From NCBI RefSeq assembly GCF_003334355.1, contig NZ_QOWP01000014.1: 64,000 bases of DNA, one strand, 5' to 3'. Positions within the stretch are counted from its first letter, which is position 1. The number at the start of each line of letters is the position of its first letter. The notes below the pieces were generated by a model. That model did no database searches and had not been told where the DNA came from. It was given only the letters and a program-made list of their open reading frames with translations. This document shows, in pieces, positions 3,612 to 31,068 of the stretch. The position numbers were made by a program, and so were the translations under genes. This DNA is from Escherichia coli. GTDB lineage: Bacteria; Pseudomonadota; Gammaproteobacteria; Enterobacterales; Enterobacteriaceae.

Positions 3612-3635
3612 AAAAAAGGCGCAGAATCCTGCGCC
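3612..3635 (-). terminator. Intrinsic terminator-like hairpin downstream of secA
   Basis: Minus-strand stem ggcgcag/ctgcgcc followed by a U-tract, immediately before the mutT start. Confidence 0.5.
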
Positions 3636-3656
3636 TTTTACTTTAACAGTTAGCTT

Positions 3657-24548: not shown

Positions 24549-25007
24549 TTATAGAGACAAGTCCTGCAGTCGCTCCGATAAGTCTCCGGTAGCCAACTGC
24601 TCTGCGTCGATATCTTCCTTGACCTGTTGATGCCAGGTTGTTTCATCCCACAGCTCAAACTTGTTGAACTGTCCAACCAGCATCACTTCTTTTGTCAGCC
24701 CGGCATGTTGCCGCAGTACTGGCGCGATTAACAATCGACCTGCGCCATCCATCTGACATTCGCTGGCATGACCTAACAGTAGGCGCTGCACACGGCGCTC
24801 AACCGGGTTCATGCTCGACAGACGCGATAATTTTTGCTCGATAATTTCCCATTCAGGCAGGGGGTAAAGCAGCAGGCACGGGTGATAAATGTCAATGGTG
24901 CAAACCATTTGACCGGCAGCGTTCTCAAGCAGCTGTTCCCGATAACGGGTAGGCACTGATAAGCGCCCTTTGCTGTCGAGATTGACTAACGTTGCTCCCC
25001 GGAACAT
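24549..25007 (-). CDS. mraZ: Transcriptional regulator MraZ
   Basis: 152 aa from [23 protein letters not shown]; first gene of the dcw cluster. Confidence 0.93.
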
Positions 25008-25026
25008 GCCAGCCTCACCCCTTATT

Positions 25027-25051
25027 CCCACTTTGCCCCACAATTTCCCAC
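25027..25051 (-). promoter_or_regulatory. MraZ operator in Pmra region: three direct GTGGG repeats at 10-bp spacing
   Basis: Minus-strand gtgggaaattgtggggcaaagtggg located 20-44 nt upstream of the mraZ ATG. Confidence 0.6.
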
Positions 25052-25608
25052 TGAAAGGAGTTTACGGAGCTGAGGAAAAGCTTGTCAAGCCAGTCACAAG
25101 GCATACCGAGGTAAAAAACCCGATGTTTACGGCTAATATCAGCGTTGTTTATTTTACGTCCAACGTGCGAAGCAAATTAACGTTATGAATAGCTGTAAGA
25201 AAAAATCCCTCATCGTCATCACTGTTTTAAAATGACTCACTATTTTCCACAGCAAATATAAAGTGTCAGTTTGCGACGCGAGCGGCATTTTAGGACATAT
25301 CTTCCCCGGTTAACAGTCCTTGTTACGTCTGTGTGGCGCTTGATGCCAGCGGGTTTGCGCAAAAGCAAAGAAAAGTGTTTGTTAAATCGGCAATTCATCG
25401 CCGCATGTAACAAAATAATGCAAAAACGCGCTGTCGATATCACTTAATTATTGTGAATTTCAGCTGGTGAGTTAATTAACGGGCGGGTTTAAAAGCATTT
25501 ATCAATAATAGTCAGGAATAGTCTTATTTACTTTAAGCATATTGATGTCCAGTCCCGTACTCTACGCGCCAGAGGGAAATTCACCTGGCGCGTATTTTTG
25601 TTCGCGGC

Positions 25609-26613
25609 TTAGCTACGGCTGAGCACGCCGCGGCGATAGAGATTACGTTTAATGCGCGTTAAACCAGGTTTTGGCTTACGCGGTTCGTCCAGGCTTGCCA
25701 GGACAATCTCCAGCACACGCTCTGCGACATCGCGGTGACGTTGAGCCACTGCCAGCACCGGACACTGTAAGAAGTCGAGCAGTTCGTTATCGCCAAAGGT
25801 GGCAATTGCCAGGTCAGAAGGCAGTTTGCCGTCGCGACGCAGCGTGACATCCATCACTCCTTGCAACAACGCAAACGACGTTGTGAACAGCGCCTGCGGC
25901 ATCGGATGCATTTCCAGCCATTTTTCGAATAACTGGGCAGCCGCCTCCCGCTCATAGCTGTTGGCATACAGGAAATGCACTTCGCGCGGATCATCTTTCC
26001 AGGCAGTACGGAAACCTTGTTCACGCAGGAAGCTGACAGAAAGCTCCGGTAGCGCACCAAGATAAAGCACCGTCTCGGCGGGAAACTTACGTAACTCTTC
26101 CGCCAGCATTTCGGCATCATCCTGATCGGCACCAACCACGCTGGTGAAGTGTTCACGATCGAGGGCGCGGTCCAGCGCGACAATCGGGAACGGGTCGTTA
26201 GCCCAGCGTTGATAAAAAGGATGCTCAGGAGGCAACGACGTCGAAACAATAATGGCATCAACCTGACGCTGTAAAAGGTGCTCAATGCACCGCATTTCGT
26301 TGTCTGGCTGATCTTCTGAGCAGGCAATCAGCAGTTGATAACCCCGTTGCCGCGCCTGGCGTTCAAGATAGTTAGCGATGCGGGTATAGCTGGTGTTCTC
26401 CAGATCGGGGATCACAAGACCAATAGAACGTGTGCGTCCAGCACGAAGCCCAGCTGCCACGGCGTTCGGGTGGTAATTGTGCTCACGCACCACAGCCATG
26501 ACTTTTTCAACGGTTTTGTCGCTCACACGGTATTGCTTCGCTTTGCCGTTAATAACATAGCTTGCAGTGGTCCGCGACACTCCCGCCAGCCGAGCGATTT
26601 CATCCAGTTTCAC
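25609..26613 (-). CDS. cra: Catabolite repressor/activator Cra (FruR), LacI family; GTG start
   Basis: 334 aa, N-terminal [26 protein letters not shown]. Confidence 0.96.
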
Positions 26614-31019: not shown

Positions 31020-31043
31020 GCCAGCACGCAGTCAAACAAAAAA

Positions 31044-31068
31044 CCCGCGCCATTGCGCGGGTTTTTTT
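31044..31068 (+). terminator. leu attenuator terminator
   Basis: Hairpin cccgcgc/gcgcggg followed by T7, between leuL and leuA. Confidence 0.85.

Follow-up and report, generated by a model that had tools for sequence, protein, structure and literature searches.

The 601-bp region separating cra from mraZ in Escherichia coli probably holds two ordinary features, the MraZ operator at the promoter Pmra and a stem-loop lacking a U-tract at the 3' end of the cra mRNA. The latter is most likely an ordinary 3'-end stem-loop of a known class, supplemented by an atypical A-run that appears specific to the genus, and its most likely role is to mark and protect the end of the cra transcript. The importance of these assignments goes little beyond annotation, the MraZ operator being textbook knowledge for this locus.

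The window, i.e., the whole 64,000-nt stretch of E. coli DNA analyzed here, carries ilvI, ilvH, cra, mraZ, rsmH, and ftsL on its minus strand (the "cra strand" below). Its positions are converted to K-12 coordinates by the relation K-12 = 114641 - window position, which was checked at the cra stop codon and at the mraZ start codon. The 601-bp spacer is found in 5,423 of the 5,426 complete E. coli genomes, with 100% identity to many of them, and the hairpin segment of the window shows no differences from K-12 MG1655. Synteny of cra and mraZ, together with a spacer of ~600 bp, is kept in the 80 loci from across the Enterobacteriaceae that form the comparative set. The K-12 RefSeq annotation has no feature between the two genes, the TERMITe supplements contain no entry for the locus, and no literature was found on cra-mraZ or fruR-yabB intergenic RNAs. 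A search of positions 24800-25800 against Rfam at a permissive threshold returned no true match; sR084, the best-scoring family, was rejected as a chance-level hit (15 bits vs. a gathering score of 95, E = 6.5). The features discussed below are collected in Table 1.

Table 1. Positions of the genes and signals of the cra-mraZ region, in window coordinates and in the order of transcription.
Feature	Position	Strand	Description
cra (fruR) CDS	25609..26613	-	ORF list and K-12 annotation; stop codon 25609-25611
A-run AACAAAAA on the cra strand, equal to the plus-strand T-run TTTTTGTT	25595..25602	.	Gives the hairpin the appearance of a plus-strand intrinsic terminator
cra 3' stem-loop	25563..25594	-	10-bp stem, 12-nt loop; begins 14 nt past the cra stop codon
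cra mRNA 3' end	25559 (K-12 89,082)	-	SMRT-Cappable-seq; 4 nt past the stem
C-rich, G-poor patch, candidate rut site	25449..25498 (K-12 89,143-89,192)	-	C 12-13, G 4-5 per 40 nt
Pmra promoter	25059..25088	-	TTGACA, 18-nt spacer, TAAACT; 10/12 in the sigma-70 promoter scan
MraZ-binding repeats GTGGGAAATTGTGGGGCAAAGTGGG	25027..25051	-	GTGGG AAATT GTGGG GCAAA GTGGG; three direct units, exact 10-bp period
mraZ CDS	24549..25007	-	ORF list and K-12 annotation; ATG at 25007

Sequence and Fold of the Stem-Loop Following cra

The stem is formed by the arms TACGCGCCAG (25563-25572) and CTGGCGCGTA (25585-25594), which pair with 7 G-C pairs, and the loop can form two extra pairs. The hairpin alone folds at about -18.5 kcal/mol. 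Folding of its 71-nt context yields -25.9 (plus strand) and -25.4 kcal/mol (minus strand), with a z-score of about -3 each. The T-run exists on the plus strand only, where the tail TTTTTGTT (25595-25602) adjoins the stem; on this strand, a GC-rich stem-loop is followed by a U-tract, as is found in intrinsic terminators (tail UUUUUGUU, 7 U out of 8). On the cra strand, the stem is flanked by AACAAAAA directly on its 5' side and by GAGUACGG on its 3' side. The stem-loop of a canonical intrinsic terminator is thus present at the end of cra, but not the U-tract of 7-8 nt: only one of the 8 nt that follow the stem is a U, which makes a classical intrinsic mechanism unlikely for this strand. The initial annotation had described a hairpin at 25565-25600 with a plus-strand T-run and no U-tract behind it on the minus strand, and the coordinates and both traits are confirmed; it had also put the element 9 nt from the cra stop, where the closeness holds but the gap to the stop codon is 8 nt.

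The hairpin was missed by the built-in terminator scan because of a loop limit of 8 nt. In a custom scan that admits larger loops, it is placed among bona fide terminators of the window, for instance those of SgrS and the ilvH-distal one. The lenient class of terminator-like motifs is ~2-fold enriched in the window over random sequence (29 observed vs. 16.4 +/- 4.2). To our knowledge, the sequence of the hairpin does not resemble the REP consensus. Two other hairpins of the window, at 31040-31065 and 3616-3637, are flanked by both an A-run and a T-run and score as terminators on both strands in the custom scan. They are probably true bidirectional terminators, in contrast to the one-sided hairpin following cra.

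The 3' End of the cra mRNA

In the SMRT-Cappable-seq dataset (Yan et al. 2018, PMC6131387, Supplementary Data 1), a forward transcript of b0080 (cra) runs from the TSS at 87,968 to a TTS at 89,082, flagged only as "novelTTS". This already public 3' end lies immediately after the hairpin (Table 1), which can be annotated as the cra 3'-end stem-loop. Among the 94 reads that start at the cra TSS 87,968, 20 stop at the TTS 89,082, 24 within the next 50 bp, and 6 beyond, and the median extension of the read-through is 119 nt (PMC6131387). The candidate rut site is located 60-110 nt beyond the cra 3' end; by composition only, no other patch of the region has a stronger excess of C over G on the cra strand. 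The median extension of the cra reads ends just beyond this site.

A class of E. coli mRNAs with comparable ends has been described (Dar & Sorek 2018, PMC6061677). These Rho-terminated mRNAs end precisely at stable stem-loops without U-tracts; termination occurs diffusely downstream, with rut sites just downstream of the stem-loop, and PNPase and RNase II then trim the transcripts. Their 3' stem-loops are typically not preceded by A-tracts, which are typical of intrinsic terminators (PMC6061677). According to the same study, terminator types switch easily by gain or loss of uridines, and transition states are possible. As in this class, the cra stem-loop stands directly 5' of a precise steady-state 3' end without a uridine tract, and the locus displays a downstream C>G region and heterogeneous longer ends. 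Unlike most members of the class, its stem is directly preceded by the A-run AACAAAAA, although the absence of an A-tract is a typical rather than a strictly defining trait.

From this likeness, we infer that the termination of cra is Rho-dependent and followed by exonuclease trimming. The GC-rich stem-loop would form in the cra mRNA and define its 3' end, while RNA polymerase would run beyond the hairpin. Rho would then load on the downstream C-rich patch and terminate transcription diffusely within the next 50-150 nt, and exonucleases would trim the transcript back to the hairpin. The reads ending after the site outnumber those ending at it, and the 119-nt extension reaches past the C>G patch, both of which favor Rho termination and trimming. 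In the Term-seq lists of Adams et al. 2021, no cra 3' end is reported anywhere, nor does their bicyclomycin table contain a cra entry; the missing cra 3' end in these lists is probably due to low expression.

Conservation of the Stem-Loop among Relatives

A stable hairpin (-11 to -26 kcal/mol) beginning 1-17 nt past the cra stop codon is present in ~74 of the 80 Enterobacteriaceae genomes, and the identity of this segment between genera is just 0.2-0.36. Atlantibacter, Kosakonia, Phytobacter, Cedecea, and Franconibacter possess a canonical cra-strand terminator at this position (e.g., AAAGGCAGC...GCTGCCTTTTTT), and in some Enterobacter cra is followed by a hairpin and TTTTG. The post-cra hairpins of Citrobacter, Klebsiella, and Kluyvera have neither an A-run nor a U-run, and that of Escherichia has the A-run only. 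The Escherichia hairpin shares with the canonical or bidirectional terminators of Atlantibacter, Kosakonia, and others its position after cra, a similar stem energy, and the 5' A-run. Unlike them, it has lost, or never had, the U-run of the cra strand. The sole half present in Escherichia is the one that would serve the opposite strand, and the next gene, mraZ, is co-directional and not convergent. This comparative series makes a tidy natural illustration of the switching between intrinsic and Rho-type ends by gain or loss of a U-run.

The hairpins of Escherichia and Citrobacter are homologous, with an invariant 3' arm CTGGCGC. Across 11 distinct variants, compensatory double changes are observed in 2 of 9 pairs, and on the cra strand every one of the five one-sided stem changes (three C-G to U.G, two A-U to G.U) leaves a wobble pair. 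Read on the plus strand, these five substitutions are A.C or C.A mismatches, so that pairing of this strand is not maintained in relatives; the independent substitution events behind this argument number perhaps 3-4. For instance, a C-to-T change shared by E. albertii and E. coli CB7453 produces a G.U pair on the cra strand and an A.C mismatch on the plus strand.

Furthermore, fixed windows covering the first 70 nt after the cra stop were folded on both strands, together with control windows. The cra strand folds better in 61 of 81 genomes; E. albertii reaches -23.3 kcal/mol on this strand and -11.5 kcal/mol on the other, and the two strands of E. coli do not differ. Since control windows from other parts of the spacer show strand asymmetry too, the folding test is supportive only. 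Together with the wobbles, it supports selection of the stem pairing on the cra strand.

Of the 5,426 E. coli genomes, 4,859 contain a match to an 81-bp hairpin segment. In a sample of six variants that spans the range of identity, substitutions occur in the loop and in the outermost pair, and the stem core is constant save in one lineage that has the cra-strand wobble of E. albertii. The hairpin had initially been considered as unexplained by the flanking genes. This no longer holds, given the cra 3' end 4 nt past the stem, the hairpins of relatives at the same place, and a pairing kept on the cra strand only. The fallback proposal of an RNA stability element comes close to the best explanation, with the precision that it applies to the cra mRNA.

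The surroundings of the hairpin are rearranged in a few genomes. In E. coli 23CRST031 (NZ_AP045800.1, 3,501,804-3,502,500), an IS1A whose transposase is annotated as frameshifted is inserted directly 3' of the cra hairpin, after GTAG. The insertion leaves the hairpin detached from the remaining spacer and puts ~0.8 kb between cra and the upstream portion of the mraZ regulatory region. Citrobacter koseri and Intestinirhabdus alba have longer cra-mraZ spacers (646 and 733 bp, respectively), in which additional GC-rich, REP-like palindromes separate cra from the conserved portion of the spacer.

The T-Run of the Opposite Strand and Other Readings of the Hairpin

The hairpin and its T-run might also constitute a working intrinsic terminator of the plus strand, which would end an unannotated short RNA or halt antisense or divergent transcription from the AT-rich mraZ upstream region ahead of cra, perhaps in dual use with the cra mRNA; this is unlikely. 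Taken as a motif, the element matches the real terminators of the window in strength (10-bp stem, 7 G-C pairs, tail TTTTTGTT), and in physical terms a polymerase coming from the direction of mraZ would probably be stopped by the hairpin and the T-run that follows it. The corresponding A-run of the cra strand reads AAAAA in E. coli, E. albertii, E. whittamii, and Escherichia sp. E1V33, AAAAC in Escherichia sp. MOD1-EC7003, and AAAAG in E. coli ECONIH2. Thus, 4-5 A residues are kept 5' of the stem in five Escherichia lineages, while the preceding 9 nt differ, and such a run is atypical of Rho-type 3' stem-loops (PMC6061677). Against a selected role, the run is down to A4 in some strains and is missing from the homologous Citrobacter hairpin, and seems specific to the genus Escherichia. 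Moreover, the third codon positions of cra are identical across four Escherichia species at 62% of sites, so that a five-base A-run would be retained by chance with a probability of ~0.62^5 = 0.09, which is not beyond the neutral expectation.

The search for a matching transcript also speaks, if weakly, against termination on the plus strand. Between mraZ and the hairpin, no plus-strand sigma-70-like promoter scores at least 9/12, the best candidates reaching 8/12, and neither the K-12 annotation nor Rfam has a match there. These results lend no support to the initial proposal of a terminator for a transcript divergent from Pmra. SMRT-Cappable-seq selects for long transcripts, and in this size-selected dataset no reverse-strand transcript end (plus strand of the window) occurs at the hairpin. 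Term-seq gives no reverse-strand 3' end at K-12 8903x-8904x in three conditions, in thresholded lists from which the cra end is missing too (Adams 2021). The plus-strand 3' ends at the hairpin that had been put forward as a check, which would fall in the T-run at about K-12 89,039-89,046, are thus found in neither of two datasets, one thresholded and one size-selected. Finally, the C-to-T change of E. albertii and CB7453 breaks a plus-strand pair, and in E. albertii this strand has about half the folding energy of the cra strand. Overall, a dedicated or selected function as a plus-strand terminator has a low probability.

A dual-strand stem-loop, though quite improbable, would combine both roles. 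It would block exonucleases at the end of the Rho-terminated cra mRNA and, by means of the T-run gained in Escherichia, act as an intrinsic terminator of the opposite strand, either ending a short, unannotated RNA of ~85-440 nt from the AT-rich region upstream of mraZ or shielding cra from antisense transcription. Evidence that the T-run is used on the plus strand would make the locus a minor instance of a hairpin serving both strands between co-directional genes.

A further reading, which is hardly probable either, makes the hairpin a non-canonical Rho-independent terminator of cra, with release at or near position +4 without a U-tract, the downstream ends being read-through. Intrinsic termination requires a weak rU-dA hybrid, and the single U in the 8 nt after the stem is difficult to reconcile with this. 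In its favor, the 3' end is discrete (4 nt past the stem) and no more than 6 of the 94 reads continue for at least 50 nt; however, the 24 reads ending within 50 nt after the site, as compared with 20 at the site, fit diffuse termination and trimming. This reading also draws on the canonical intrinsic terminators found at the orthologous position in other genera and on the transition states that are possible between terminator types (Dar & Sorek, PMC6061677). That the hairpin and T-run are functionless, a chance palindrome or a decayed repeat element, is highly improbable: lenient terminator-like motifs are merely ~2-fold above random in the window, but the z-score is about -3 on both strands, an mRNA 3' end maps to the foot of the stem, the position is kept in ~74 of 80 genomes despite sequence turnover with compensatory changes preserving the stem, and the stem core stayed constant in the six sampled variants while the loop varied. 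The preferred reading remains that of a 3'-end stem-loop of the cra mRNA.

The MraZ Operator at Pmra

The second feature of the spacer is located at its opposite end. The array of three GTGGG repeats occurs nowhere else in the 64-kb window, even if one mismatch is tolerated, and was not recovered in any of 100 dinucleotide shuffles. It ends 19 nt ahead of the mraZ ATG. The TSS of Pmra has been mapped at K-12 89,588/89,589 by SMRT-Cappable-seq and at 89,590 by Cappable-seq, corresponding to window positions 25051-25053. The repeats begin at this mapped TSS and occupy about the first 25 nt of the transcript (+1 to +25). The promoter/operator block (intergenic positions 521-601) shows 0.80-0.93 identity over 71 Enterobacteriaceae genomes, with values above 90% for the Pmra promoter. 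The GTGG cores are retained across the Enterobacteriaceae, four Escherichia species included, and within the genus only the last base of the third repeat varies. This repeat, aligned to 25027-25031, is GTGGT in E. albertii, E. whittamii, and Escherichia sp. E1V33, which suggests that only the GTGG core is constrained.

The region 25027-25051 is the locus at which the E. coli MraZ operator was defined. MraZ binding to the repeats and repression of Pmra in E. coli were reportedly shown by Eraso et al. in 2014 in J Bacteriol. The array shares with the MraZ operator of the dcw/mra cluster its three direct repeats with a GTGG core, their 10-bp period, and their location at the TSS upstream of mraZ, and does not differ from the operator as published for E. 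coli. Its identity as the already known MraZ operator is established, with MraZ binding and Pmra repression taken from the literature. MraZ would bind the three GTGGG repeats and repress its own operon and, since the repeats start at the mapped TSS, the bound protein would block initiation or promoter escape. MraZ-binding repeats at the E. coli mra promoter are documented, and the concept is summarized in bioRxiv 10.1101/2022.02.09.479790. The initial assignment of the repeats as the MraZ operator is therefore borne out by an array that is unique, conserved, described in the literature, and placed at a mapped TSS beside a 10/12 promoter.

Other Features of the Spacer and of mraZ

Published forward-strand TSSs, i.e., in the direction of mraZ, are found at 89,143, 89,237, 89,360, and 89,590 (Cappable-seq), and three of these four adjoin blocks that are far better conserved across genera than the hairpin. 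A first block, at 25298-25254 on the minus strand (K-12 89,343-89,387), has ~96% identity over 71 Enterobacteriaceae genomes. It comprises a conserved CTGTTA, a variable spacer of ~17 nt, a conserved TAAAAT, and then the GC-rich GCCGCTCGCGTCGCAAACTGACACTTTATATTT. The Cappable-seq TSS 89,360 (window 25281) lies 5-6 nt after TAAAAT. This block looks like a conserved upstream promoter of the mraZ strand, with a GC-rich discriminator and a leader of ~270 nt.

A second, highly conserved block, at 25208-25169 (K-12 89,433-89,472), reads TTTTTTCTTACA..TATTCATAACGTTAATTTGC and has TAACGTTA, a palindrome of 8 bp, as its core. The block overlaps a hydrophobic ORF of 21 codons, MTMRDFFLQLFITLICFARWT, at ~25252-25187. 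The small ORFs of the spacer were rejected as genes, as they are not conserved as coding; in the 21-codon ORF, third codon positions are equally conserved, and the C-terminus is not conserved. For this block, a role as a protein-binding DNA site or RNA element is more probable than a coding one. Two conserved motifs occur just upstream of weak forward TSSs, TTTGCATTATTTTGTTACAT (25424-25405) for the TSS at 89,237 (window 25404) and TAAGAYTATTCCT (25526-25513) for that at 89,143 (window 25498). Inside mraZ, at position 24858 of the minus strand (K-12 89,783), a Term-seq 3' end (+) of Adams and a Cappable-seq TSS fall on the same coordinate. This coincidence suggests a processing site or a technical artefact, and not independent start and stop signals.
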